A DNA stretch of 64,000 bases from the NCBI GenBank assembly GCA_013816135.1, contig JACDEV010000002.1, positions 33,120-97,119 of the forward strand. Direction: 5' to 3'. Under the pieces are notes generated by a model. That model searched no databases, had not been told where the DNA came from, and saw only the letters and a list, made by a program, of their open reading frames with translations. Positions 651 to 50,530 of this stretch are shown piece after piece (position 1 is the first letter of the stretch; every line of letters starts with the position of its first letter). Position numbers and translations under genes: made by a program. The DNA is from Patescibacteria group bacterium (GTDB lineage: Bacteria > Patescibacteriota > Minisyncoccia > Phycocordibacterales > DATDWN01).

Positions 651-766
651 GATTTTTGTTTGAGTTCAAGGCGCGACGTTTTGTTTTTGACCAAGGTGTA
701 CATGCTAGTACTCCGCGGGAGAAAATGAAACTAGCAACGCAGAAATCGAACAAAAAAATAAGAAAT
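651..766 (-). repeat. conserved ~115-nt 3'-UTR element, copy A (second copy at 61071-61186, ~85% identical)
   Basis: Starts immediately after the lexA stop codon. Aligns base-for-base with 61071-61186 over its whole length. Contains the GTAC-N5/6-GTAC mini-hairpin and the CAACGCAGA block. Confidence 0.6.
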
Positions 767-1344
767 TAATACTTTCGTATTACACCTTTAACTATAGCTG
801 CAATCTTCAAATCATACTGAGGATATATCGGTGAATAGTTCTTATTAGCCGGTTTTAAATAAACTACATTCCCTTTCTTCTTGAAGTACTTCATTGTCCA
901 GCCACCATCAACTTCTGCAATAACAATATCTCCGTCCTTTGGGTTTCCTCGTCTCTCTACTAAAACCAAGTCACCTTCCTTAATCCCTTCGTCAATCATT
1001 GAATCACCTTTTACTTCCAAAAGATAAGTTGATTCTTTGTTCCCCACTAAGTATTCATTAATACTAAGAGTCTCGGAACTCATCTCGTCTACTGAGGTTG
1101 GAAATCCTGCTTCAACAAGTCCAAGTAAAGGAATCTCACCAAATATCTTCATGGGAGTAAGTTTACCGTTTGAGTCTTTATCTATGACCTCATCATCAAC
1201 AAGTTTATTAATCAATTTATAAACAGCGTTCTTGGACTTGAAACCAACAAGGGTCATGATCTCTTTGTAACCTGGCATCCTTCTATTTTTTCTATAGAAG
1301 GATAGAATCTTATTTTTGTAGTCAGAGTAGTTTTGATCACTCAT
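766..1344 (-). CDS. lexA: LexA repressor (S24 peptidase, SOS regulator)
   Basis: N-terminal wHTH followed by an S24 domain. Ala-Gly cleavage site (VEAGFP), GDSM catalytic Ser motif and a downstream Lys. Confidence 0.9.
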   Translation of the reverse strand: MSDQNYSDYKNKILSFYRKNRRMPGYKEIMTLVGFKSKNAVYKLINKLVDDEVIDKDSNGKLTPMKIFGEIPLLGLVEAGFPTSVDEMSSETLSINEYLVGNKESTYLLEVKGDSMIDEGIKEGDLVLVERRGNPKDGDIVIAEVDGGWTMKYFKKKGNVVYLKPANKNYSPIYPQYDLKIAAIVKGVIRKY

Positions 1345-3163: not shown

Positions 3164-4852
3164 TCAATATTCTTCTACAAATAATCTTGCTAGTCTTATT
3201 TTCAGATAACTTGGTTTTTTCTTTTGCTTCAAAAGTAGATTATAAACCGGAGATAAGGTCATAGTTCCTGTTTTCTTGAAAGCTGAGATAATGTCATCTA
3301 GTTCGCTCCGTTTCAGTTCTCGTTTTAAGTAAGTTATATCTGGACACTTTTTCTCTGCTCTCAACTCCTCCACATGAGAAACAACTGTTTCTGCTTTCAA
3401 TCCTCTAGCATCGGCAATGTCTGATAATGGTACTTCCTGTTCAAGCATTCCCGCAGTGATCTCTTGAGTAGATTTTTTTACTTCTCTATTCTCTTCCTTT
3501 TCTTTTCTTTTTATCTTTAATTTTTCTTCTGGCTCAATTGATTTTATAAATTTCTGTTGGATCTCCTGAATATCTTTTTCCGAAAGCTCATTTAAGTCAG
3601 TGACCGCATCTACTGATAAATCCCGAAATCTTTGATCCATTTCTAAGACTTCTGGATCTACCTCCAGGGCTATATCGTTAAATCCCAAAAGCTTCATACC
3701 TCCAAGTGACCTTACACGTGAAAGAGCAACATATCCCATTCCTTTTACAAACGATTTGGAAAGGTCTACTTCCATAGCATCTAGTGACATTCCCTGACTC
3801 TTATGTACTGTAATAGCCCACGCTAACCTTAAGGGGTACTGTGTAATTTCCGCTTTAACTTTGCCTTCTTCTTCTACTTTCCAAGATTGGGGAGAAACAG
3901 ACAATTTCATGCCGTTAGTTGTTTCCACAATAGGATCACCAAAAGAATTAAAATCAGAAATTACTCCTAATGTTCCGTTTACATAAATACCTTCATTATG
4001 ATTTTTTGTAAACATAACACGAGCACCTTTTTTTAAAGTTAATACCTCAGGAGACAAACAACTTTTTTTTAAACTTTCCATTAGCCCAGATGAGCCTTTC
4101 CATGTCATGTTGTATTCTTTCTCATCACCCTTTATTAGATTAAGGTGTCTTTTGTTCACCACATCTACATCGATGTTGTGAGTATAAACTCTAGTTGCAA
4201 CTGCTCCTGATTCAGGATCTTTATTAAATCTGGTTTTCAAAAGCTCGATAGTTTTTTTAGTAACTTTGTTTTCGCGTATCTGATTCAAGATAGCAAGATA
4301 AGTATTATCCTTTTGGCGATGCTGTTCCGAGAGGTGACAAATGGTAAATTTTGAAGCTAACCAGCTTTCTGCTTTATAAGCAAACTCAGACTCAGCTGAC
4401 TCCCTTATGCCTCTAGTAACAGGCGGTAGTTGAAAAAAATCCCCACATAAAATAATCTGCATACCTCCGAATGGCCTTTCATTATGTTTCATTTGTCGGC
4501 ATATCCACTCTATGAGGTCTAGTCTGAAATGATGTAGCATTGAAACTTCATCAATTATCAAAACCTTAGTACGTTCAAATCTTTTATATAAATACTGTCT
4601 TTCCATCAAATCCTCAATGTCATAATCAGTCAGAATGTCTCTAACTCCCAAACCGGACCATGAATGTATAGTCATTCCACCCAAGTGTGTAGCAGCTATT
4701 CCTGTTGAAGCTGTGACAGCTACATCTACCGCATGAGATTTCAAATAATTTATATAGGAATTCAAAACATAAGTTTTTCCACTTCCCGCCGGGCCTGTCA
4801 AAAAAACATTTTTTCCCATTTTTAAAATATCTAATGCTTCAGATTGCAACAT
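3164..4852 (-). CDS. PIF1/RecD-like ATP-dependent DNA helicase
   Basis: Walker A LTGPAGSGKTYVL and Walker B VLIIDEVSML. SF1 helicase motifs with a RecD/Pif1-type arrangement. Confidence 0.8.
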   Translation of the reverse strand: MLQSEALDILKMGKNVFLTGPAGSGKTYVLNSYINYLKSHAVDVAVTASTGIAATHLGGMTIHSWSGLGVRDILTDYDIEDLMERQYLYKRFERTKVLIIDEVSMLHHFRLDLIEWICRQMKHNERPFGGMQIILCGDFFQLPPVTRGIRESAESEFAYKAESWLASKFTICHLSEQHRQKDNTYLAILNQIRENKVTKKTIELLKTRFNKDPESGAVATRVYTHNIDVDVVNKRHLNLIKGDEKEYNMTWKGSSGLMESLKKSCLSPEVLTLKKGARVMFTKNHNEGIYVNGTLGVISDFNSFGDPIVETTNGMKLSVSPQSWKVEEEGKVKAEITQYPLRLAWAITVHKSQGMSLDAMEVDLSKSFVKGMGYVALSRVRSLGGMKLLGFNDIALEVDPEVLEMDQRFRDLSVDAVTDLNELSEKDIQEIQQKFIKSIEPEEKLKIKRKEKEENREVKKSTQEITAGMLEQEVPLSDIADARGLKAETVVSHVEELRAEKKCPDITYLKRELKRSELDDIISAFKKTGTMTLSPVYNLLLKQKKKPSYLKIRLARLFVEEY

Positions 4853-4949
4853 GGTTTCATTCTACCAACCGGACTGTGTATAAGGATAGTTGACAGTCAA
4901 GTGTAAGTATTAGAAAATCCAACATTTACTCAGGCGATTTTTAAAGAAA

Positions 4950-5603
4950 TTATTTACTTAAAACTTTCCAAGCCTCTATTTTCTTGTGATCACCTGATAA
5001 TAAAATTTTCGGTACTTTGTATTTCTTACCTTTATATTGGAATATTTCTGGACGTGTATATACATCATGACTTGATACCCGAGACTCTTCTAGAGAGGAA
5101 AAGTTCCCAAGTACTCCTTCCACTTGCCTTGCAACACAATCCAAGAGAACCATTGCTGGCAACTCACCACCAGTTAGCACAAAAGGACCTACAGAAACAT
5201 CTTCCATTTTGAAAACTTTTTTTATTCTTGCATCAATTCCTTCATATCTTCCTGCAACTAAAATAATATCAGTGTATTTTTTTGAAGTCTGTTTTGCATA
5301 TTCAGTATTGAACTGCTTACCTCCTGGCGAAAAGAAAATTATCTTCACTTTTGATTTTTTGTTTCTTTTTATTTGCGTTAAAGCCTTTTCAATTGCCTTA
5401 ATGGTTGGTAAAGCCTGAATAACCATTCCGGGTCCTCCGCTGTAAGGCTTCTGATCTACTCTCTTCCATTTGTCATCAGAATAATCTCTTGGATTATAAA
5501 AACTGACTTTTATTTTCTTATCCGCAATTGCTCGCGAGATAATAGACTCATTCAGATATGAGTCAAAAGCGCTGGGAAACAATGTTATGACGTGAAATTT
5601 CAC
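4950..5603 (-). CDS. trmD: tRNA (guanine37-N1)-methyltransferase
   Basis: TrmD signature blocks: ITLFP, GRYEGIDARI, VGPFVLTGGELPAMVLLD. Confidence 0.9.
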   Translation of the reverse strand: MKFHVITLFPSAFDSYLNESIISRAIADKKIKVSFYNPRDYSDDKWKRVDQKPYSGGPGMVIQALPTIKAIEKALTQIKRNKKSKVKIIFFSPGGKQFNTEYAKQTSKKYTDIILVAGRYEGIDARIKKVFKMEDVSVGPFVLTGGELPAMVLLDCVARQVEGVLGNFSSLEESRVSSHDVYTRPEIFQYKGKKYKVPKILLSGDHKKIEAWKVLSK

Positions 5604-5636
5604 ACCCTACTTATACCACAAATTTTGACATTAGAA

Positions 5637-5660
5637 AAGGGCGCACATTGCGCCCTTTTA
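5637..5660 (-). terminator. hairpin AAAAGGGCGCACATTGCGCCCTTTT between the Cys-rich ORF and trmD
   Basis: 9-bp GC-rich stem with a flanking T-run on the minus strand. Confidence 0.5.
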
Positions 5661-5672
5661 ATTACCCAAAAG

Positions 5673-5885
5673 CTATCTTCCCGACGCCATCTGCTCAGGC
5701 TCGTACAGCTTCACTTTTCCCCCAGCCAAAAGCTCAGTCTCTGTAGAGAAGTTTGGTAGATCGCTACCACATTGAATGCATGTAGTCTGCCCTACCAACT
5801 CCTGCTTGTAGCCGCACTCCTTTCCAGAACGGCCATCGACTACTGGTGTATTTCTACAAGTGATCCACGGTAATTGGAGAGTCAT
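5673..5885 (-). CDS. hypothetical Cys-rich small protein (possible zinc ribbon) at the position where rimM is usually found
   Basis: 70-aa ORF with C-x13-C-x11-C-x2-C spacing. GC-richer than its surroundings. Own terminator hairpin downstream. Confidence 0.25.
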   Translation of the reverse strand: MTLQLPWITCRNTPVVDGRSGKECGYKQELVGQTTCIQCGSDLPNFSTETELLAGGKVKLYEPEQMASGR

Positions 5886-6030
5886 CCATCCCCCTGGTTT
5901 GTATCTAAGTAAAATGATAACACCATTTTTTCGAAAAAAATCTAATGAGCAATCTAGAAGTGCATAACTTTTGTAGACATTAACAAAAATAACCTCGTGT
6001 GAGGTTATTTTTGTTAATTTGTTAATTAGA

Positions 6031-6354
6031 TTAAAGCTTTAAGTCGCTCATTGCATCGTCTAAGGACTTTGTAGCACTTGTTCTTACTTCGTTAATACTT
6101 CCTGCTGGCTCATTTATTTTTAGATTTACACGAGCGTTGTTCTTCATTCCTACTACGCGCAATAGTGTTCGGATTGCCTTTGCGGTATTTCCTTCTCTGC
6201 CGATTATCTTTCCCATATCGTCCTTGTGAACATCTAGTGTCATCAAAACCCCCATTTCATCTACGGTTCGAACTATTTTTACATCCTCAGGATGTTCAAC
6301 CAAAGTTTTTATTATAAAATCTAGAAACTGTACGTCTTTTTCCATGATGGACAA
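6031..6354 (-). CDS. KH-domain RNA-binding protein (YlqC/UPF0109 family)
   Basis: GKIIGREGNTAKAIRTLL matches the KH GxxG loop. Conserved position between rpsP and trmD. Confidence 0.8.
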   Translation of the reverse strand: MSIMEKDVQFLDFIIKTLVEHPEDVKIVRTVDEMGVLMTLDVHKDDMGKIIGREGNTAKAIRTLLRVVGMKNNARVNLKINEPAGSINEVRTSATKSLDDAMSDLKL

Positions 6355-6453
6355 TCAGTTAAATTATAAACCTGCACTATAATTGTAATAACTAAAAAAC
6401 TTAGTGTCAATTGTAAAATCAATAAAGAAAACAATTAATTGCGTAAAAAGAGA

Positions 6454-6906
6454 TTAAGCAGGTACTTCTTCGGTGGCGGGAGCTGGAGATGGAGTCTCTA
6501 CTGGAGTTTCCACCTCTATTTTTTCCTCAGCTTTTTCCTCAGCTTTTTCTGGAGCAGTTGCTGGTTTTGCTTCTGGTTTTTCTTCTGGAGTTGCTTCTAC
6601 CGCCTCTCCAACTGGTGCATCCTTAACAATTGCTTTCTTTAAAGGAAGAACGTTGACCTTCTTTCCAGAAATAATATTCTTGCTTACAAGAAGATTGTGA
6701 ACCGTTCCAGAAACCTGTGCTCCTTTTGAGATCCAGTAAGTTACTCTGTCTGCCTTGAAAGTAGATTTGTCTCCTCTTCTTGCATCATAGCTACCCAAAA
6801 CTTCCAATGATTTTCCGCTTTTTGCAGCGTTTTGAGACTCAGTAACAACAAGACGAAATGACGGTTCGTGTGTCCGTCCTACTCTCTGTAATCGTATTTT
6901 TAACAT
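6454..6906 (-). CDS. rpsP: 30S ribosomal protein S16 with a long Ala/Pro/Glu-rich C-terminal extension
   Basis: MLKIRLQRVGRTHEPSFRLVV is the S16 N-terminus. The C-terminal ~70 aa are low-complexity and encoded by tandem 15-bp repeats near 6527-6556. Confidence 0.85.
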   Translation of the reverse strand: MLKIRLQRVGRTHEPSFRLVVTESQNAAKSGKSLEVLGSYDARRGDKSTFKADRVTYWISKGAQVSGTVHNLLVSKNIISGKKVNVLPLKKAIVKDAPVGEAVEATPEEKPEAKPATAPEKAEEKAEEKIEVETPVETPSPAPATEEVPA

Positions 6907-6999
6907 GTACGCTATAGTAACAGAATGAAACAAAATGGTCAATTAAACAAAGCAAGTCTGACCCCCTCATTTGGAATCAGACTTGGTGACCGAGAGAAG

Positions 7000-7263
7000 T
7001 TAACACTTTTGACGGTCAATATAATTGGCACAATTACGAAGAAGGGTTTCTCGAGGAAGATTCATCTGTCCTGTGCCTTTTGAGCCTTCAGGAAGTGCCG
7101 AGTCATAAAGGGTAATGTCTGCCATCCAACACCGAGCATTGTTCTCCCGAGCTTTATGAGTCCTCAAAAGATTTCTTAAACGCTGTAGCTCCTTTCCTCG
7201 CTCGGACAAGCTCATTTCTTTAATATCACGATCCAGTTTCATCCTGAACCTTCTTTTTGACAT
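7000..7263 (-). CDS. hypothetical protein
   Basis: 87-aa ORF. A second 45-aa ORF in another frame (7235-7372) overlaps its start, so a frameshift or two tiny genes are possible. Confidence 0.25.
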   Translation of the reverse strand: MSKRRFRMKLDRDIKEMSLSERGKELQRLRNLLRTHKARENNARCWMADITLYDSALPEGSKGTGQMNLPRETLLRNCANYIDRQKC

Positions 7264-14147: not shown

Positions 14148-14340
14148 AATTAAGTGGTTCTAATTCCTAGAAATAGCATACCAAAAAATAAATTCTTAGT
14201 CTAGGGTAGTAACAATCAACTTAAACTTTCAAATTTGAGTGAAATCCGAGGCGGATAAGGAAAAGAACTGGAGACGTATAGTAATACGTTGACAGGTATT
14301 TTCTGAAATCCAACGACGGAGTTCGCCAAATTTGAAAGTT

Positions 14341-14568
14341 TTATCTACCTTCCTTCTTTGCTGCTTGAGCTTTTTTGTTGCGCTTTGTAATCTTTGCCTG
14401 AACATCTATTACCTGTCTGCCTTTGTACAATCCAGTTACAAGTGATGCTCGGTGTCGAAGATGAGGAACGTTTGTGCTTTTATCTACAGTTACTGCAGGA
14501 GAAGATAAGCCATCGTGAGATCGCCTGTTGTTTCTATGACTTTTGGTGCTACGCATTCTTACTACCAT
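14341..14568 (-). CDS. rpmF: 50S ribosomal protein L32
   Basis: RRSHDGLSSPAVTVDKSTNVPHLRHRASL...GLYKGRQVI matches the L32 consensus. The true start may be the downstream Met (14556). Confidence 0.8.
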   Translation of the reverse strand: MVVRMRSTKSHRNNRRSHDGLSSPAVTVDKSTNVPHLRHRASLVTGLYKGRQVIDVQAKITKRNKKAQAAKKEGR

Positions 14569-24585: not shown

Positions 24586-24657
24586 ATTGGAAATATTATA
24601 TCAAAAATAAGTATGCTAAACAAGCGATTTATTCATATTTTTAGGCTTAAATTATAC

Positions 24658-24686
24658 TTGACAAATAGTTATTATTGTGCTAATAT
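24658..24686 (+). promoter_or_regulatory. consensus sigma70 promoter TTGACA-N17-TAATAT
   Basis: -35 at 24658-24663, -10 at 24681-24686. SD GAAGAGG precedes the ATG at 24741. Confidence 0.6.
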
Positions 24687-24740
24687 TGTAAATAGAAAGA
24701 CTCACAGTCTAGCTATCTAACAACTGAAGAGGTATAAGAC

Positions 24741-24938
24741 ATGAGAAACTTTATGAGAGGATTTGCAACCGGCTTTGGTGCTGAAGTGGTCATGGGGGTT
24801 CTCCTCTATGTTTTCCTTCAGTCACAGAATGCCCTTCGACCGGGCACCGGAACCACGTACATCGCTGTAATGGGAAGCTTCGCACTGTTTTTCGGCGTTA
24901 TCACAGGCATTGGAGTAATCACCCGGAAAAAAATCTAG
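24741..24938 (+). CDS. small membrane protein (65 aa, two predicted TM segments), GC-rich
   Basis: ORF with a strong promoter, an SD and a strong terminator. Confidence 0.45.
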   Translation: MRNFMRGFATGFGAEVVMGVLLYVFLQSQNALRPGTGTTYIAVMGSFALFFGVITGIGVITRKKI

Positions 24939-24968
24939 AGGCAAGCCGCCACCAATCCCGATACAGAA

Positions 24969-25005
24969 CCTCGCACAGATGTGCGACTCTGTGCGGGGTT
25001 TTTGT
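24969..25005 (+). terminator. rho-independent terminator
   Basis: CGCACAG-ATGTGCGACT-CTGTGCG followed by GGG TTTTT. Confidence 0.65.
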
Positions 25006-25064
25006 ATTTATTTAAACTCGTTGAAACAAAGCAATTTATTCAGATTTTTAGCCTTAAATTAAGG

Positions 25065-25093
25065 TTGACAATAGAATAAATTTAAAGTATAAT
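25065..25093 (+). promoter_or_regulatory. consensus sigma70 promoter TTGACA-N17-TATAAT
   Basis: -35 at 25065-25070, -10 at 25088-25093. The ~45 nt upstream are a near-duplicate of the sequence upstream of the 24658 promoter. Confidence 0.65.
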
Positions 25094-25129
25094 CCGAAAA
25101 GACGAAACGGTGAACAAGTACCGAAAGGA

Positions 25130-25580: not shown

Positions 25581-25617
25581 ATGTACGAACTCTGTACGGG
25601 GTTTTTGTATTCTAAAA
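25581..25617 (+). terminator. rho-independent terminator homologous to the one at 24969-25005
   Basis: CCGTACAG-AAATGTACGAACT-CTGTACGG followed by GG TTTTT. Same GGGGTTTTTGTATT tail as the previous terminator. Confidence 0.65.
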
Positions 25618-25776
25618 ATATCGTTGACTCATAAGTTTTCTGAGACTTTCACAGGCTGACGAGCCGAGAATAGCAAAATCCTAGCAAGGATTTATGTGTG
25701 TTGAAGAAAACTTATGAGGAGAAAGAGATTGTGGATTTGAGTTGAATTTTTGGCCATTTTTGGCTAGACTGTCTAG

Positions 25777-35949: not shown

Positions 35950-36372
35950 ATGATTTAAGTTAGATTAATTCTAACTTATTAATTTTATAAAAGCCAAGGA
36001 GAACAACACACTGTCAGGTTTTCCTTCGCCTCTCAAACTTGTCGTCACGTGGCCGTTCGCCTCCTTACAGGAGCAGTACACCTTGCCTGGTTTTTTCATT
36101 CACTTTGTTCTGAAAAAACCAGGCAAGGTCTTGCGACTGGGACCCTTATCCCAGTCTCACCTCTCAGGTAAACCTGACAGCGTGGCACGCAAAAATCCGC
36201 TTTCGCGGATTTTTTCGTGAGCCACCTTGTCTTCTGGGAAACACCACAAGAGTACTTCCATTTGCTAAAGCAAATTAGGTCGCCCACGGTTTTCCCAATC
36301 CTTCCTCCACGGGAAACTCCCGTTTCCCGACCCCTTCCCGCTGACAGGAAAATCTCACTAATGTGAGATTTT

Positions 36373-36448
36373 TGGAGCCACCTGTCAGGTTTGAACTGAC
36401 GACCTGCCGTTTACAAAACGGCTGCTCTACCAACTGAGCTAAGGTGGC
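36373..36448 (-). tRNA. tRNA-Thr (anticodon UGU), CCA encoded
   Basis: Reverse complement GCCACCTTAGCTCAGTTGGTAGAGCAGCCGTTTTGTAAACGGCAGGTCGTCAGTTCAAACCTGACAGGTGGCTCCA folds as a cloverleaf. 7-bp acceptor stem, anticodon loop TTTGTAA, T-arm GTCAG/CTGAC. Confidence 0.85.
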
Positions 36449-38861: not shown

Positions 38862-39065
38862 AACTTCACCTCTATCTATACCATAACATCTTAAACTAAT
38901 TTGTCAAACGTTTTTCGAATAATGCTAAATTAAAATCTCGTTGGCTCATAATCTTTTTGGAGGCTCAGAAGCGCGACGGCGCGAGGATTCGAGAGATTTT
39001 TCAGTAAGAAAAATCGCGTACTCCAAAAAGGTTGTGAGTCAAGAAGAGATTTTATAAATACAAAA

Positions 39066-40037: not shown

Positions 40038-40164
40038 TGTGTTAAGTATAGCAATTAAGAACCAAGAAAATAGCCCTGGATGCTAGGCGCGGAAAGATTT
40101 TCGAGTGAGATGTACATTGAGTACATTGAACGAGAAAATCTGCATCGCAACAACGCAGACAGGG

Positions 40165-40437
40165 TTATTTTGTTGTGTTCTTACCGGCTTTAGCTTTGGC
40201 GACTCTCGCTTTGAACTTCTCCGCTCTTCCAGCAGTATCGAGTGACTTCTCATTTCCAGTATAAAAAGGATGTGATGCACTAGAAACTTCAAGTCGAAAC
40301 AATGGATATTCTTTACCATCTTTAGCTTTGCCTTGTTCAGTTGTAACTACTGTAGACGAAATAACAAACTCAGCTGAATTTGAGTTATCAATAAATAGTA
40401 CTTTCCTATAGTTCTTTGGATGTATGTCTTTTTTCAT
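40165..40437 (-). CDS. rpmE: 50S ribosomal protein L31 (type B, non-zinc)
   Basis: MKKDIHPKNYRKVLF...HPFYTG. Confidence 0.85.
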   Translation of the reverse strand: MKKDIHPKNYRKVLFIDNSNSAEFVISSTVVTTEQGKAKDGKEYPLFRLEVSSASHPFYTGNEKSLDTAGRAEKFKARVAKAKAGKNTTK

Positions 40438-43192: not shown

Positions 43193-43407
43193 TCGGCCAG
43201 TATATAGAAAAGGTGATAAAAAATCAACCTCCGATCACAATTACAAAATCTCTTTCTCATCATATCTTTTTTTGAGCCACATAAAAGCCTACTGGCTTTT
43301 TGTTCTGTCTCGGCTACCCGCCTGCGAATGCTCCAAAAAAAATATTACTCGACGAGATTTTGTACACTAGCTCAAATCTAAGTTTCGAAGTTACTTATTG
43401 TTATCTG

Positions 43408-44348: not shown

Positions 44349-45350
44349 ATGTTACAAACAGATATTCTTTCTATTGGAGATATAACAACAGATGCTTTCA
44401 TAAAAATCAGCAACGCAGAAGTTCATTGTGATATCGATAAACAAAACTGTAAGCTCTGTGTTAACTTCGGCGACAAGATTCCTTACGACTCCGTAACTCT
44501 GGTTAAAGCTGTAGGAAACAGCGCAAATGCTGCAGTTTCTGCAGCCAGACTTGGACTGAATTCGGCTTTGCTTGCATATGTTGGAGATGATGAAAACGGA
44601 AAAGACGATATTGAAATTTTGAAAAAAAATAATGTCGACACTAAATATGTCAGAGTAGAAGAAGGAAAGAAAACAAACTACCACTATGTCCTATGGTATG
44701 ACGTTGATAGGACAATATTAGTTAAACATGAAAGTTTTAGTTATGAATTAGGAGATATTGAACCACCAAAATGGATCTATTTAAGTTCGCTCGGGGACAA
44801 CACTCTAGATTTTCATATACAAATCGCAGACTATATTGAAAAAAATCCTAACATTAAGCTTGCTTTCCAACCTGGAACATTCCAAATTAAAATTGGGAAA
44901 GAAGCTCTAAAAAAAATCTACAGCCAGACTGAAATATTTTTTTGTAATGTCGAGGAAGCTCAGCTTATTTTAAGTGAATCTTCACGAGCTATTCCTGTTC
45001 TTGTAAAAGGTATTGCTTCCTTGGGTCCAAAAACTGTAGTTATTACTGATGGTTTCGCTGGAGCTTATGCGTGTGATACAAAAAACGATGCAGAGACAAT
45101 ATGGTTTATGCCTGTTTATCCTCATACTCCTATCGAAAGAACAGGAGCTGGTGATGCTTTTGCTTCAACTATAGTTTCTGCAATCATTCTAGGTAAAACA
45201 CTCCAAGACGCTTTGACTTGGGCACCTATAAACTCCATGTCAGTTGTACAAAAAGTCGGAGCACAAGAAGGACTACTTTCTAAAACGGAGATTGAAAACT
45301 ATCTAGCAAAAGCTCCTGAGGATTACAAACCTTCAAAACTAAATTCCTAA
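44349..45350 (+). CDS. PfkB-family carbohydrate kinase (possible 6-phosphofructokinase/ribokinase-like)
   Basis: C-terminal GAGDAFAS anion-hole motif. Ribokinase-fold blocks. Confidence 0.8.
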   Translation: MLQTDILSIGDITTDAFIKISNAEVHCDIDKQNCKLCVNFGDKIPYDSVTLVKAVGNSANAAVSAARLGLNSALLAYVGDDENGKDDIEILKKNNVDTKYVRVEEGKKTNYHYVLWYDVDRTILVKHESFSYELGDIEPPKWIYLSSLGDNTLDFHIQIADYIEKNPNIKLAFQPGTFQIKIGKEALKKIYSQTEIFFCNVEEAQLILSESSRAIPVLVKGIASLGPKTVVITDGFAGAYACDTKNDAETIWFMPVYPHTPIERTGAGDAFASTIVSAIILGKTLQDALTWAPINSMSVVQKVGAQEGLLSKTEIENYLAKAPEDYKPSKLNS

Positions 45351-45461
45351 AAGTTTTTAAAATTGCTTTAGATGCTAGGCGTGTGAGATTTTATGAGTGA
45401 GCCGTACATTTAGTACGGTGAAAGAATAAAATTGAAACACAACAACGCAGATGAAGTGTTT

Positions 45462-46463
45462 TTAAGGACTTTTCCTGCCGATTACTTTTTTGGCGGCTAA
45501 GATTATATGCGACTGATTCATTCCATAATGACCAATAAGCTCATCTTGTGTTCCTGATTGTCCAAACTTATCTCTGACTCCGATAAATTCGATTGGTACT
45601 GGAAAATTTTCTGCTAAGGTTTCAGCAATAAGTGACCCCATACCCCCCATAATCTGATGCTCTTCAACAGTGACAATACATCCCGTGGTCCGTGCAAGAT
45701 TTACTACCGATTCAACATCCAAAGGCTTAATGGTTGCGAGATTCATTACCTTGGCGGATATACCTTCTAATTTCAAAGCTTCAGCGGCAAGTAAAGCTCG
45801 ATGGACCAAGGCACCAGTGGCAATTATTCCAACATCTGCATGAACTTCCTCTTCTCCATAAAATAGAACGGCTCTGCCAAGCTCAAAGGGAGTTTCATCT
45901 GTAGTAATAACTGCAGTTTTTTCGCGGGCTAATCGAATATAAACAGGATGACCTATTTCAGCCACTGCCAATGTTGCTTTCCTAGCTTCTATGTAATCAC
46001 ATGGAGAAACTACCACCATCTTTGGAATAACTCTTGTAAGTGCGATGTCTTCAATTGCTTGATGAGTTCCCCCATCAGGGCCTACAGAAACTCCAGCGTG
46101 TGAACCCGCAATGATAACAGCTCTATTGTTGTAGCAAATTGTAGTTCTGATCTGTTCCCAATTTCTACCAGGAGAAAACATTGCATAACTGGAGATGAAA
46201 GGAATTTTTCCCATGGCAGCCATACCAGAAGCAACGGAAGCTAAGTTTTGTTCTGCCACTCCAATTTCCACAAACCTGTCAGGAAATTTATCTCGAAATA
46301 GATTCATCTTAGTTGACTCAGTCAGATCTGCGCATAACCCGACAACCTGAGAATTATTTTCACCTGCTAAAACTAATCCCTCTCCAAAACCATTGCGAAT
46401 AGGAACTTTCTCAACATCTTTTTTAAAAATCTTGGGATTAAGTTTTAAGGATTTGTTGATCAT
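45462..46463 (-). CDS. transketolase, C-terminal subunit
   Basis: Pyrimidine-binding and C-terminal domains of a split transketolase. Confidence 0.85.
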   Translation of the reverse strand: MINKSLKLNPKIFKKDVEKVPIRNGFGEGLVLAGENNSQVVGLCADLTESTKMNLFRDKFPDRFVEIGVAEQNLASVASGMAAMGKIPFISSYAMFSPGRNWEQIRTTICYNNRAVIIAGSHAGVSVGPDGGTHQAIEDIALTRVIPKMVVVSPCDYIEARKATLAVAEIGHPVYIRLAREKTAVITTDETPFELGRAVLFYGEEEVHADVGIIATGALVHRALLAAEALKLEGISAKVMNLATIKPLDVESVVNLARTTGCIVTVEEHQIMGGMGSLIAETLAENFPVPIEFIGVRDKFGQSGTQDELIGHYGMNQSHIILAAKKVIGRKSP

Positions 46464-50164: not shown

Positions 50165-50261
50165 ATGAAATTAGCTGAATTTAAATTGTATAAAGAAATT
50201 ATAACAAAATAATAGACAAGAGAAAACCGCCAGCCTAAGCTGACGGTTCCAAAAAAGCTTT

Positions 50262-50456
50262 CTAGATTATGAGCAGAAACCACCCAACTACTGCTCCGAT
50301 ACAAGCAAGCACTCCTGTGATGATCCAGGAGCCGTAACAAGTACGCAATGTAAATTTGCATAGAGTATCTACAGGACAGCGTTTCTTTTTGTGATTTCCT
50401 GAACAGACAACAAGCGATGTGATTGCCATAAAAATGGCTCCGACTACTGCTCCCAT
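50262..50456 (-). CDS. small two-TM membrane protein (hypothetical)
   Basis: 64-aa ORF with two hydrophobic helices. Confidence 0.3.
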   Translation of the reverse strand: MGAVVGAIFMAITSLVVCSGNHKKKRCPVDTLCKFTLRTCYGSWIITGVLACIGAVVGWFLLII

Positions 50457-50530
50457 AATATATTTGTCTCCCTATTTACCCTATAACATAAAGAATTGAA
50501 GGTCAAACAAATCAAAAACCTGAATAAAAG

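Follow-up and report, generated by a model that had tools for sequence, protein, structure and literature searches.

The Tuberculosis Rho-independent terminator motif (TRIT) of Mycobacterium is a sequence-conserved hairpin with 147 copies, narrowly distributed around position -8 of the stop codon (PMC3152330); its authors inferred a factor that binds the motif (Gardner et al., 2011; PMC3152330). ERIC and Correia repeats at 3′ ends are transcribed along with the gene and influence mRNA stability (PMC3184786), some copies altering it through RNase E or RNase III (PMC3184786; PMC2759123). Both are imperfect palindromes of about 100-157 bp (ERIC, from enterobacteria, measures 127 bp; Correia elements are from Neisseria) that lie outside genes but within transcribed DNA, commonly intercistronic or at 3′ ends. 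Their terminal inverted repeats are conserved, TA duplications flank them, and either orientation occurs. REPINs, of the REP-RAYT system, are long extragenic hairpins that form persistent, vertically inherited populations with conserved sequence (PMC3116915). Each is a pair of inverted REPs whose ends are conserved and whose middle varies, bearing a 5′ GTAG/CGTC tag, and a single-copy RAYT gene accompanies them. The integron attC site is an imperfect palindrome of 57-141 bp that abuts or covers the upstream gene's stop codon, and its folding strand is antisense to that gene.

Genomes of the candidate phyla radiation (CPR, Patescibacteria) are about 1 Mb and highly streamlined. We examined 64 kb of one of these (the window, that is, the whole stretch of DNA analyzed), where two look-alike sequences, copies A and B, are members of a previously undescribed family of conserved hairpins in CPR (Paceibacteria) genomes. 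Six copies are in the window and about 30 more are in related Paceibacteria and Zambryskibacteria assemblies. This streamlined lineage still keeps roughly one conserved 125-nt hairpin per 10 kb, even inside ribosomal-protein operons.

Comparison with known repeats and RNAs

Like TRIT, the CPR element is a many-copy palindrome conserved in sequence and structure, narrowly placed at stop codons and beginning within coding sequence. TRIT is much shorter, GC-rich, restricted to Mycobacterium and proposed as the terminator itself, whereas the CPR element is a rod of about 125 nt with an AU-rich base and several internal loops, its folding signals favor the antisense strand, and it is often found ahead of a separate canonical terminator or inside operons. 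By size and base composition homology is unlikely, and TRIT, compared here by its description, is a functional analogy only.

The element shares with ERIC and Correia repeats its size class, its extragenic placement in transcribed regions and a highly conserved sequence at locations that vary between species; as with MITEs of this type it is multi-copy and non-coding, with site differences among relatives (six copies per 64 kb; lexA, KH and rpsN sites). Unlike them, it has termini that vary and covary in place of conserved terminal inverted repeats, no flanking target-site duplication such as TA, about 80% of copies in one orientation, and one end flush with an ORF. REPINs differ in having the reverse layout, the CPR element being conserved in the middle and variable at its ends, without the tag, and no RAYT gene was seen at the loci looked at. 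As in attC, an imperfect palindrome lies at or over a stop codon with its folding strand antisense to the gene, but the R″(RYYYAAC)...R′(GTTRRRY) boxes are missing; the stem base is AATTTCTG...CAGAAATT, with its GTT and AAC triplets in the reverse arrangement (GTTYGA...TCGRAC). Nor is there an integrase context or a promoterless cassette array of the intI/attI kind; the neighbors are syntenic housekeeping genes, and some copies are reversed, ahead of start codons. Likeness to hammerhead, 6S, SRP, T-box or attC was backed by neither sequence nor Rfam. For 6S RNA (about 180 nt with a large central bubble, RF00013) there was no Rfam match, and the largest internal loop of the element is about 6 x 9 nt.

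Copies A and B

Copy A (641-767) and copy B (61062-61187) are non-coding, in the same orientation and about 86% identical (blastn: 86.5% identity across 104 nt, E = 3e-20). In a MAFFT alignment their similarity ends at AATTTCT and AGAAATT boundaries, and a 27-nt pattern common to both has two matches in the window with none expected (100 shuffles). A sequence-only reading had already picked out this pair of non-coding look-alikes as 651-766 and 61071-61186; the likeness is confirmed and both copies prove slightly longer. The same reading placed them against minus-strand stop codons, which is correct to within an overlap. Copy A touches the stop codon of a LexA-like repressor gene (Peptidase_S24; 766-1344, minus strand), its closing helix sharing 2 nt with that codon (766-768), and copy B shares 1 nt with the stop codon (61187-61189) of an RRM_1 RNA-binding protein gene (61187-61498, minus strand). 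The order at the latter locus, in gene sense, is RRM stop, element and then an ordinary bidirectional intrinsic terminator (61012-61043), 16 nt past copy B.

Each copy forms one long imperfect hairpin of about 125 nt (z = -4.9 to -6.8; none of 200 shuffles folded as well). We refer to the better-folding strand of the element as the model sense, which for copies A and B is the plus strand, antisense to lexA and to the RRM gene. Along this strand of copy A, the 5′ arm of the closing helix P1, AATTTCTT (641-648), pairs with AAGAAATT (760-767); a conserved internal loop has CAAGGCGCGA (668-677) as its 5′ strand, with the family-wide core AGGCG in invariant columns, and CTAGCAACGCAGAA (732-745) as its 3′ strand, with the family-wide core CAAC-NN-AG-A; and the apical hairpin GGTGTAC-ATGCTA-GTACTCC (695-714) has a covarying stem and a loop of free sequence. 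The GTAC-N5/6-GTAC mini-hairpin and the CTAGCAAC(G/A)(C/A)AG block that were listed earlier as separate features are present, and both are parts of this single hairpin.

The family in the window and in relatives

About 32 distinct copies were gathered by pattern scans and two covariance models, R1 and R2. Canonical and divergent copies were modeled separately because MAFFT offsets the middle helix by one column between the groups; a single broad model was dropped for this misalignment. R1 scores copy A at 144 bits and copy B at 156 bits. R2, made from divergent copies alone, retrieves both on the called strand only, copy A through its core (659-750, 44 bits, plus strand only) and copy B with 60 bits.

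The covariance models found four more, divergent, copies in the window. The one at 14223-14344 (plus strand; folding energy -52 versus -41.7 kcal/mol; R2 93 bits) overlaps with its 3′ end the stop codon of rpmF (L32; 14341-14568, minus strand), and has a nusB/NUDIX gene downstream. That at 40056-40184 (plus strand; -63.2 versus -47.9 kcal/mol; R2 93 bits) includes in its lower stem the final codons and stop of rpmE (L31; 40165-40437, minus strand), and prfA starts about 20 nt past its other end. The copy at 45349-45473 (plus strand; -43.0 versus -25.8 kcal/mol; R2 91 bits) fills the convergent spacer between a pfkB-family kinase gene (plus strand, stop 45348-45350) and the gene for a transketolase C-terminal subunit (minus strand, stop 45462-45464). 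The fourth (57288-57406, minus strand; R2 82.5 bits) lies in the nrdA-nrdB spacer with its model sense coinciding with that of the mRNA, and its 3′ end is 13 nt ahead of the nrdB ATG (57274).

A search of the whole window with Rfam 15 at gathering thresholds gave tRNA-Thr as its sole match, and a scan of 560-820 at E ≤ 10 gave only chance-level matches to MicF and mir-553, at about 15 bits. Phage and plasmid collections yielded no blastn match to the element; in IMG/VR the canonical pattern was absent and the four matches of a looser pattern were false. Our literature search turned up no earlier description of such a repeat or structured RNA in CPR. The window also holds a second, unrelated family of hairpin repeats of about 130 nt.

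Fold and covariation

Family members are rod-shaped hairpins of 120-135 nt with a fixed architecture. From base to tip this consists of a variable, covarying closing stem (P1/P2), a short helix, the asymmetric internal loop 5′-AGGCG / CAAC-NN-AG-A-3′, a middle helix, purine-rich internal loops, which in the divergent copies are 5′-GA/5′-GA tandems, and an apical stem of 6-7 bp with a free loop. A conserved G.U pair closes the helix beside the GA/GA tandem in seven of eight divergent copies. The termini (among them AATTTCT, AATTTGC, AATCTATC, AATCCTG and AAGCTTGG) are least conserved and the interior most conserved.

The fold is strongly supported by covariation. For the canonical set, 94.5% of cells are paired and 18 pairs have two-sided changes, values matched by none of 500 shuffles, and slid controls reach 41-49%; for the divergent set, 89.6% are paired and 21 of 30 pairs have double changes (again none of 500 shuffles). 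P1 is the most variable part of the family, with both sides changed in seven of the eight pairs of helix 1; the apical stem (helix 5) has four of six pairs so changed. The suggestion that the sequences are structured, non-random and non-coding, to be judged by compensatory changes, is thus borne out. A minus-strand ORF that had been pointed out, MYTLVKNKTSRL..., does exist, but not as a gene: its start codon (MYTLVK...) has changed from ATG to ATA at the KH locus of relatives, so that the ORF is a by-product of nucleotide conservation. A plus-strand ORF with a TTG start is broken by 1-nt indels. Variation tracks base pairs and hits first and second codon positions.

Position at ORF ends

One defined end of the element is nearly always at an ORF boundary, usually the stop codon of the convergent gene and sometimes a start codon; in about 31 of 32 copies an ORF start or stop is touched by the 3′ end of the model sense. 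For copies after 17 gene families the hairpin base lies -24 to +5 nt from the stop codon, with the mode at +1/+2. At least 17 gene families precede the element, including those of a KhpA-like KH protein, rpsN, rpmE, rpmF, rplF, secY, ssb, HU, a DksA-like protein, FKBP, a XerC-like protein and transketolase; four genes (nrdB, rpsN, rplX and one of 374 aa) have it ahead of their start codon. The element has no particular attachment to lexA or the RRM gene, and the tie to those two proteins that had been proposed from copies A and B lacks support. Nor is it a simple repeat scattered at random positions and orientations: copies are many, but highly non-random relative to ORF ends, and about 80% uniform in orientation. 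Inward-pointing copies bracket rpsN (in L008 and L022) and the 374-aa gene (L010).

The order stop codon, element, intrinsic terminator is found for copy B, L016, four KH loci and L022b; at the exceptional L040 the copy is beyond, not ahead of, the terminator of the gene. Within the spc operon the element occurs between rpsN and rpsH, rplF and rplR, and secY and adk, and other intercistronic copies are at rpmE-prfA, ssb-rpsR and nrdA-nrdB. Copies are dispersed behind syntenic housekeeping genes (spc operon, rpsP-KH-trmD, lexA).

Upstream of the element in the model sense we found no sigma-70-like promoters; -10-like hexamers could be seen there by eye at inconsistent distances. At seven or more loci a strong intrinsic terminator lies 0-45 nt upstream in this sense, too close to accommodate a promoter. 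Orthologous loci share no conserved upstream flank.

No target-site duplication or target motif was consistent across copies, and occupied and empty lexA sites compared with each other show no duplication. TA or TAA is on the stop-codon flank only and comes from the stop codon itself; the other flank is GA, AC, AG, AT or TT.

Selection in place and variable occupancy

At orthologous sites the element is 0.83-0.94 identical, against 0.39-0.64 at fourfold-degenerate (synonymous) positions in the gene next to it; the contrast is smaller for the RRM pair (0.74 versus 0.64). Being conserved so far above synonymous sites, the element is under purifying selection in place. Within orthologous sets, 19 pairs switch between two Watson-Crick types, and at the KH locus a synonymous AAA to AAG change in the last codons is compensated in the non-coding arm. 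Elements have been gained or lost at single sites among related genomes though selected in place. The lexA site is occupied in four genomes and empty in five (in L033 the empty site is a lexA TAATG DUF1905 overlap); the KH site is occupied in L001-3, L018 and L033 and empty in the window's own genome; and the rpsN-rpsH site is empty in L007. The association with the RRM gene is kept in a second genome (L016) and that with lexA in three others, although most LexA orthologs examined have no element. Upkeep of the hairpin above synonymous sites points to an unrecognized lineage-wide process at the ends of coding regions, with a putative factor that would read the invariant loop.

Strand asymmetry

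In 27 of 28 copies the model sense gives the more stable fold, with an advantage of up to 18.6 kcal/mol. It has 39 G.U pairs versus 13 for the opposite strand in canonical copies, 18 versus 3 in divergent copies, and 12 versus 2 among in-situ changes that could be aligned reliably. Wobble pairs, folding energy and tandem G.A loops agree in favoring this sense. About 80% of copies have it antisense to the mRNA, and in six or seven it is within an mRNA (W45344, L010b, nrdB, rpsN, rplX and the L010a leader).

Three explanations were set aside. A mutational bias has the wrong sign: with G<C on the window's plus strand, deamination on the leading or non-template strand would push the wobble asymmetry the other way. 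Cruciform DNA cannot be asymmetric between strands, since a G.T in either arm is matched by an A.C in the opposite one. By reasoning, if the 3′-UTR copies were targets of the sense-strand RNA and paired with it in trans, most one-sided changes would give A.C mismatches.

Covariation, wobble asymmetry and genomic context therefore conflict on whether the functional strand is an mRNA-sense RNA, an antisense RNA or single-stranded DNA. The initial view of copies A and B as 3′-UTR RNA elements is partly upheld: in gene sense they are 3′ UTR or intercistronic spacer following a stop codon, but the better-folding, wobble-tolerant strand is antisense to lexA and RRM. A plain mRNA-sense function fails to predict the strand signals, because the favored strand is antisense to mRNA in most copies. 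This conflict makes the element a clean test case, and the strand question bears on whether mRNA-end processing, antisense control or a single-stranded-DNA mechanism is at work.

Interpretation

We lean, somewhat short of thinking it probable, toward the view by analogy that the element is a dispersed hairpin module, retained by the host and co-transcribed, that sits at mRNA ends and binds a shared putative factor. It would derive from a mobile palindromic repeat that the host has kept to act in cis where coding regions end. Its position between stop codon and terminator or between cistrons suggests that it is transcribed together with the neighboring gene. The RNA hairpin would then form with its base starting at or including the stop codon, and one trans factor would recognize the invariant internal loop. 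The outcome would be a defined, processed or protected mRNA end, with RNase III-type cleavage, obstruction of 3′ exonucleases and factor-assisted termination as candidate actions. Such a role has been proposed for TRIT and shown in some ERIC and Correia copies. At several copies the element is not itself the terminator, because ordinary terminators come after it. Against this reading, a stabilizing hairpin would not need invariant loops.

A rather doubtful alternative is that the functional molecule is the model-sense RNA, acting as a 5′ leader or 3′-UTR element where this is the mRNA strand and elsewhere as a cis-antisense RNA or an insulator or attenuator. In the latter form the hairpin would be on transcripts that enter an ORF from outside, pointing inward at either end, and would stop, or trigger the cleavage of, antisense and read-through transcripts. 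Every strand-sensitive signal favors this strand, including purine-rich loops with tandem G.A and conserved G.U, and the expected mutational bias would have reversed the wobble asymmetry; contact of the 3′ end with ORFs, the genes bracketed by inward-pointing copies and the copies whose model sense is inside an mRNA also agree with it. However, no sigma-70-like promoter lies upstream, the terminators just upstream at seven or more loci leave no promoter room and nothing to terminate, many copies are antisense within highly transcribed ribosomal-protein operons, the hairpin has no U-tract after it, and upstream flanks are unconserved at orthologous loci.

It is likewise possible, though we hold it speculative, that the element represents a new class of gene-boundary 'guard', a structured nucleic acid maintained by host-level selection, with the strand under selection running antisense to the host's mRNA at most sites. 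Such a guard may be a factor-dependent hairpin present only on transcripts entering an ORF from outside, insulating it from antisense and read-through transcription in what may be a promoter-rich setting in an AT-rich, streamlined genome; or it may be a single-stranded-DNA signal read in replication or recombination. If true, this would imply a Paceibacteria-specific protein that recognizes the AGGCG / CAAC-NN-AG-A loop.

We consider it unlikely that the element is a mobile one acting as single-stranded DNA, in the manner of REPIN/RAYT, of an IS200/IS605-derived palindrome or of attC, with its model-sense hairpin recognized by a putative HUH-type or tyrosine recombinase and copies surviving mainly in the orientation antisense to leading-strand genes, in which that strand would seldom be single-stranded. 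This would accommodate the multi-copy state with clear presence/absence differences among related genomes, the strand asymmetry without sign of transcription of that strand, the attC-like start at a stop codon with an antisense folding strand, and the second hairpin repeat family of the window; REPINs are also long-lived within a lineage (PMC3116915; bioRxiv 10.1101/2021.07.10.451892). However, variable termini around a conserved interior are the reverse of transposon ends, REPs and attC R boxes, and neither a consistent target-site duplication or flanking motif nor, on reading the sequence, RYYYAAC...GTTRRRY boxes or GTAG/CGTC tags were found. The copies are behind syntenic housekeeping genes rather than in cassette arrays; compensation in situ, together with conservation well beyond that of synonymous sites, speaks for a host-level role of every copy where it sits; and no transposase was seen at the loci examined. 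A reverse transcriptase gene next to L008b is part of a diversity-generating retroelement that has inserted between rplE and rpsN, with template-repeat-like and variable-repeat-like ORFs, and is unrelated to the element.

That the gene-end position merely reflects where a compact genome tolerates insertions is already disfavored, and we give it very little weight. The element is indeed a palindrome of about 125 bp, multi-copy and intergenic, with sites that vary between genomes, and where genes overlap, as in lexA TAATG DUF1905, any insertion must touch ORF ends; but tolerance would explain neither the conservation above synonymous sites at orthologous loci, nor the 19 in-situ compensatory pairs, nor the strong orientation bias with only one end flush with an ORF, and variable termini without target-site duplication also speak against it. 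No more credible is a small RNA derived from the 3′ UTR, or an autoregulatory site at which the adjacent RRM protein (or LexA) would bind: for this there are the RRM link kept in L016 and the lexA link in three other genomes, and against it the 17 or more unrelated gene families before the element and four others after it, and the lack of one at most LexA orthologs examined. An ordinary Rho-independent terminator or a small protein-coding gene, which the placement after stop codons and the short ORFs readable on both strands might suggest, can be practically dismissed, the AU-rich stem base being followed by UUA and coding sequence in place of a GC-rich stem running directly into a U-tract, as canonical terminators with T-runs do elsewhere in the genome and past copy B, and the ORFs failing as described above, with substitutions that follow base pairs and not codon positions.

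For genome annotation, both covariance models can be used to annotate these elements, which mark gene ends very precisely.

Homologous hairpins in the window

We found that Paceibacteria contain a new family of strongly structured non-coding elements, situated at ORF boundaries, maintained by selection and evolutionarily mobile. Two copies, A (641-767) and B (61062-61187), are homologous and in the same orientation, with 86.5% identity over 104 nt (blastn, E=3e-20); a 27-nt pattern common to both gave two matches, against none expected in shuffles. Their likeness stops at AATTTCT / AGAAATT boundaries. Copy A has the stop codon of a lexA-like gene (766-1344, minus strand, Peptidase_S24) on one side and the start of a 110-aa ORF (247-579) on the other; copy B is flanked by the RRM_1 gene's stop codon (gene at 61187-61498) and by a canonical bidirectional terminator (61012-61043), beyond which is a DUF192 gene. 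Each is a single long imperfect hairpin, whichever strand is folded (z-scores -4.9 to -6.8). A sequence-only reading had described this look-alike pair correctly, with segments that are real but about 10 nt too short at the left end. Of the motifs it picked out, GTAC-N5/6-GTAC is the apical stem of the hairpin, and the CTAGCAAC..AG block forms the 3′ side of the main internal loop.

Read along the better-folding strand, the hairpin begins with P1 (~8 bp, variable; 641-648/760-767 in copy A), separated by a small internal loop from P2 (~11 bp, then a bulged base) and P3 (3-4 bp). There follow an asymmetric internal loop, 5′-(C)AAGGCG..-3′ facing 5′-..CAAC-NN-AG-A-3′ (strands 668-677 and 732-745 in copy A), a middle helix (8-11 bp), one or two internal loops rich in purines, and an apical stem of 6-7 bp whose loop sequence is free (apical hairpin 695-714 in copy A). 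In divergent copies symmetric 5′-GA/5′-GA tandem loops flank the apical stem, which is closed by a G.U pair in seven of eight. P1 and the apical stem are the most variable parts; nucleotides of the internal loops hardly vary, nor does the middle helix of canonical copies. Neither strand of the element contains a conserved reading frame.

Covariation support for the fold is strong. In the canonical set 94.5% of alignment cells are paired, against 41-49% for slid partners, and both sides have changed in 18 pairs; in the divergent set 89.6% are paired and both sides have changed in 21 of 30 pairs. For neither set was any of 500 shuffles as good. The compensatory changes that had been proposed as a check on the fold are present in both alignments.

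Family members

Scanning one genome per species for the pattern gave 10 loci, in CPR assemblies that bear the labels Zambryskibacteria, Paceibacterota, ‘Saccharibacteria’ and WWE3, and a metagenome scan added 13 true loci along with 7 false ones. Some loci are one contig under several bin names: L007, L009, L020 and L026, named as a WWE3 bin, a Zambryskibacteria bin and two metagenome records, are identical across the compared stretch around the element. Taxon labels beyond Paceibacteria therefore need caution. MAGs labelled ‘Saccharibacteria’ have a LexA ~84% identical to the Zambryskibacteria type; because identical sequence and such LexA cross bin names, the phylum labels of these assemblies are unreliable. 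The window LexA, itself a ‘Patescibacteria group’ protein, shares 80-90% identity with hundreds of Zambryskibacteria/Paceibacterota relatives.

Covariance model R1, built from 19 non-redundant canonical copies, picked up weaker copies, both within the window and in sequence flanking the fetched loci. Model R2 was built solely from the 89-nt core of eight divergent copies, leaving out A and B. In the window it detects six copies and no more, all of them on a single strand: 659-750 (+, copy A), 14239-14326 (+), 40075-40163 (+), 45367-45455 (+), 57303-57390 (-) and 61080-61170 (+, copy B). Recovery of A and B by a model built without them establishes their homology and orientation with the divergent copies. 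R2 yielded additional copies in other loci, and about 32 distinct copies have been found so far. The copies are many, but a simple repeat at random positions and in random orientations is not what they form: both features are highly non-random with respect to ORF ends. The element had no match in Rfam 15, phage records, plasmid records or IMG/VR, and literature searches did not find it described.

Position at ORF boundaries

We call the better-folding strand of the element the model sense; it is the window plus strand for five of the six copies. Its 3′ end is flush with an ORF boundary in ~31 of 32 copies. In most this is the stop codon of a convergent gene, where the element starts in the gene sense; the hairpin base starts -24 to +5 nt from the stop, most commonly at the second or third base of the codon. 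Such genes are lexA (four genomes), RRM (two), a KhpA-like KH protein (four), rpsN (three), rpmE, rpmF, rplF, secY, ssb, HU, and those for a DksA-like protein, FKBP, a XerC-like recombinase, an MscS-like membrane protein, a TPR protein, transketolase and a 374-aa protein. In copy B, L016, four KH loci and L022b the element separates the stop codon from the intrinsic terminator of that gene; other copies stand between cistrons of the conserved operons rpsN-rpsH, rplF-rplR, secY-adk, rpmE-prfA, ssb-rpsR and lexA-DUF1905. The stop-codon copies must therefore be transcribed within the mRNA, opposite to model sense. At L040 the gene's terminator stands between stop codon and element.

Model sense is mRNA sense in four gene contexts (five copies), where the element ends 0-13 nt before the start codon: nrdB (window), rpsN (L008, L022), rplX (L024) and the 374-aa gene (L010). 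Two copies fill spacers between convergent genes (window 45349-45473; L010 2099-2188), and some genes are bracketed by copies that both point inward (rpsN in L008 and L022; the 374-aa gene in L010).

Locus L022 (6.1 kb, spc operon) has four copies in 6 kb, a density much above that elsewhere: 1449-1582, 4342-4430 and 5504-5636 after secY, rplF and rpsN, and 5826-5946 in opposite orientation before rpsN. In L014 a polyprenyl-synthetase-like ORF (34-537, +) stops at 167 aa inside an element (468-601) and has the first DDxxD motif only; this may reflect truncation of the gene, through the element or an adjacent rearrangement.

Strand asymmetry

Every strand-distinguishing signal in the sequences points to the model sense. 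The ratio of G.U-type to A.C-type cells is 39:13 for the canonical alignment and 18:3 for the divergent alignment. Twelve pairs have switched between Watson-Crick and model-sense G.U inside orthologous sets, against only two reliably aligned pairs with the reverse toggle. Model sense is more stable in 27 of 28 copies, by 1-19 kcal/mol (for example -63.2 vs -47.9, -52.0 vs -41.7 and -43.0 vs -25.8 kcal/mol), and the nucleotides left unpaired in it are rich in purines, with tandem G.A motifs and a conserved G.U. The bias is present in antisense-context and mRNA-sense copies alike.

C>T changes build up on non-template and leading strands. This usual mutational asymmetry was rejected as the cause of the wobble bias, since it predicts the opposite sign; the window plus strand has G<C. 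Cruciform DNA was rejected because it cannot yield any asymmetry, and pairing of the mRNA-sense copies with a trans RNA because it is inconsistent with which positions vary.

A model-sense RNA serving as cis-antisense RNA, leader or insulator would fit both the strand signals and the rule that the element points into the ORF. However, no promoter for model-sense transcription was found in the copies examined, at seven or more loci a strong terminator stands 0-45 nt upstream in model sense, and many copies lie antisense within ribosomal-protein operons; we consider such an RNA possible but unlikely.

Selection and site turnover

Compared at orthologous sites, elements have an identity of 0.83-0.94, far above the 0.39-0.64 of 4-fold degenerate sites in the adjoining gene, whose overall identity is 0.72-0.86; the RRM pair is weaker (0.74 vs 0.64). 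Within orthologous sets 19 base pairs alternate between two Watson-Crick types. At the KH locus the gene's native last codons form the lower stem: the protein ends ...DLKI* with the element and ...DLKL* in a genome without it, and at L003 a synonymous AAA>AAG is accompanied by a compensating change on the non-coding arm. From the conservation relative to 4-fold sites, the Watson-Crick switches and the KH compensation it follows that the structure is kept in place.

The set of occupied sites varies among related genomes. The lexA site has the element in the window genome, L004, L006 and L012 and is empty in L033/L034, L035, L040, L041 and L042; in L033 lexA and DUF1905 overlap (TAATG). The KH site has it in L001-3, L018 and L033, while the window's own genome has an ordinary terminator directly after the KH stop and no element. 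In L007 rpsN and rpsH overlap without an intervening element. Density is 6 copies per 64 kb in the window vs 0-1 per 20 kb in sampled relatives. The element remains with lexA where the downstream gene differs between genomes. Across the copies compared we found no conserved termini, target-site duplication or flanking motif.

A mobile element active as single-stranded DNA (REPIN, attC or IS200 type) would fit the dispersal and the strand asymmetry; given the variable ends and the in-situ selection, it is doubtful. A neutral MITE is very improbable.

Interpretation

Our tentative preference is for a palindromic repeat that the host has retained at coding-region ends. It would be co-transcribed with the neighbouring coding region and act in cis, a common factor binding the invariant internal loop; the factor-bound hairpin may define, process or protect mRNA ends. 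Conserved palindromic repeats at gene ends are a known kind; new here are the positional rule, the strong purifying selection and the strand asymmetry. The closest precedents are the mycobacterial TRIT hairpins, which occur in 147 copies conserved in sequence, cluster narrowly around -8 relative to the stop codon and are inferred to bind a factor (PMC3152330), and the ERIC and Correia repeats, ~127-bp palindromes in transcribed spacers that affect mRNA stability (PMC3184786). The element is a member of none of these families. Its termini are not conserved inverted repeats, and it has neither duplications nor REP tags, and no attC boxes or U-tract.

The sequence-only reading saw 3′-UTR RNA elements, possibly binding sites for the adjacent RRM protein. 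Structured, non-random elements at 3′ ends they are, but with no specificity to lexA or RRM and on a doubtful strand, and an RRM- or LexA-specific role is hardly credible. A plain terminator or small ORF can practically be dismissed.

Other features

The window holds a second, unrelated family of ~130-nt structured repeats, in which a long lower stem bears two small hairpins (25616-25742, +; 38929-39060, +; 43236-43368, -). Its motifs are AAAATCTCGT..CTCATAA..TTTTTGGAG....CGAG...TATGTG...GAGAAAGAGATTTT, one strand folds better by 8-15 kcal/mol, and there is no match in Rfam. Two copies precede pheS and the L25/Ctc gene in sense orientation; the third, in antisense, is 5 nt away from the stop codon of prfA.

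The ~700 nt at 1600-2320, flanked by a small gene (1349-1600) and by one that is GIY-YIG-like (2323-2601), hold no convincing ORF, just short overlapping ORFs on both strands, and an Rfam E-value scan found nothing there; an RNA gene not yet described, or a degraded gene, could lie here. The otherwise compact window has further long spacers (366-615 nt) at 24586-25129, 35950-36372 (directly followed by tRNA-Thr, 36373-36448) and 50165-50530.

In the spc operon of L008, a diversity-generating retroelement (4538-7111, minus strand) is inserted between rplE and rpsN. Its parts are a 327-aa reverse transcriptase (RVT_1), a target protein of 228 aa that ends ...YWSVGWWYWRVSWLGYDFDQHNVSAVLAS, and an asparagine-rich template-like copy (...YWNDGKWNWNVNWLDNDFDQNNVSAVLAT).
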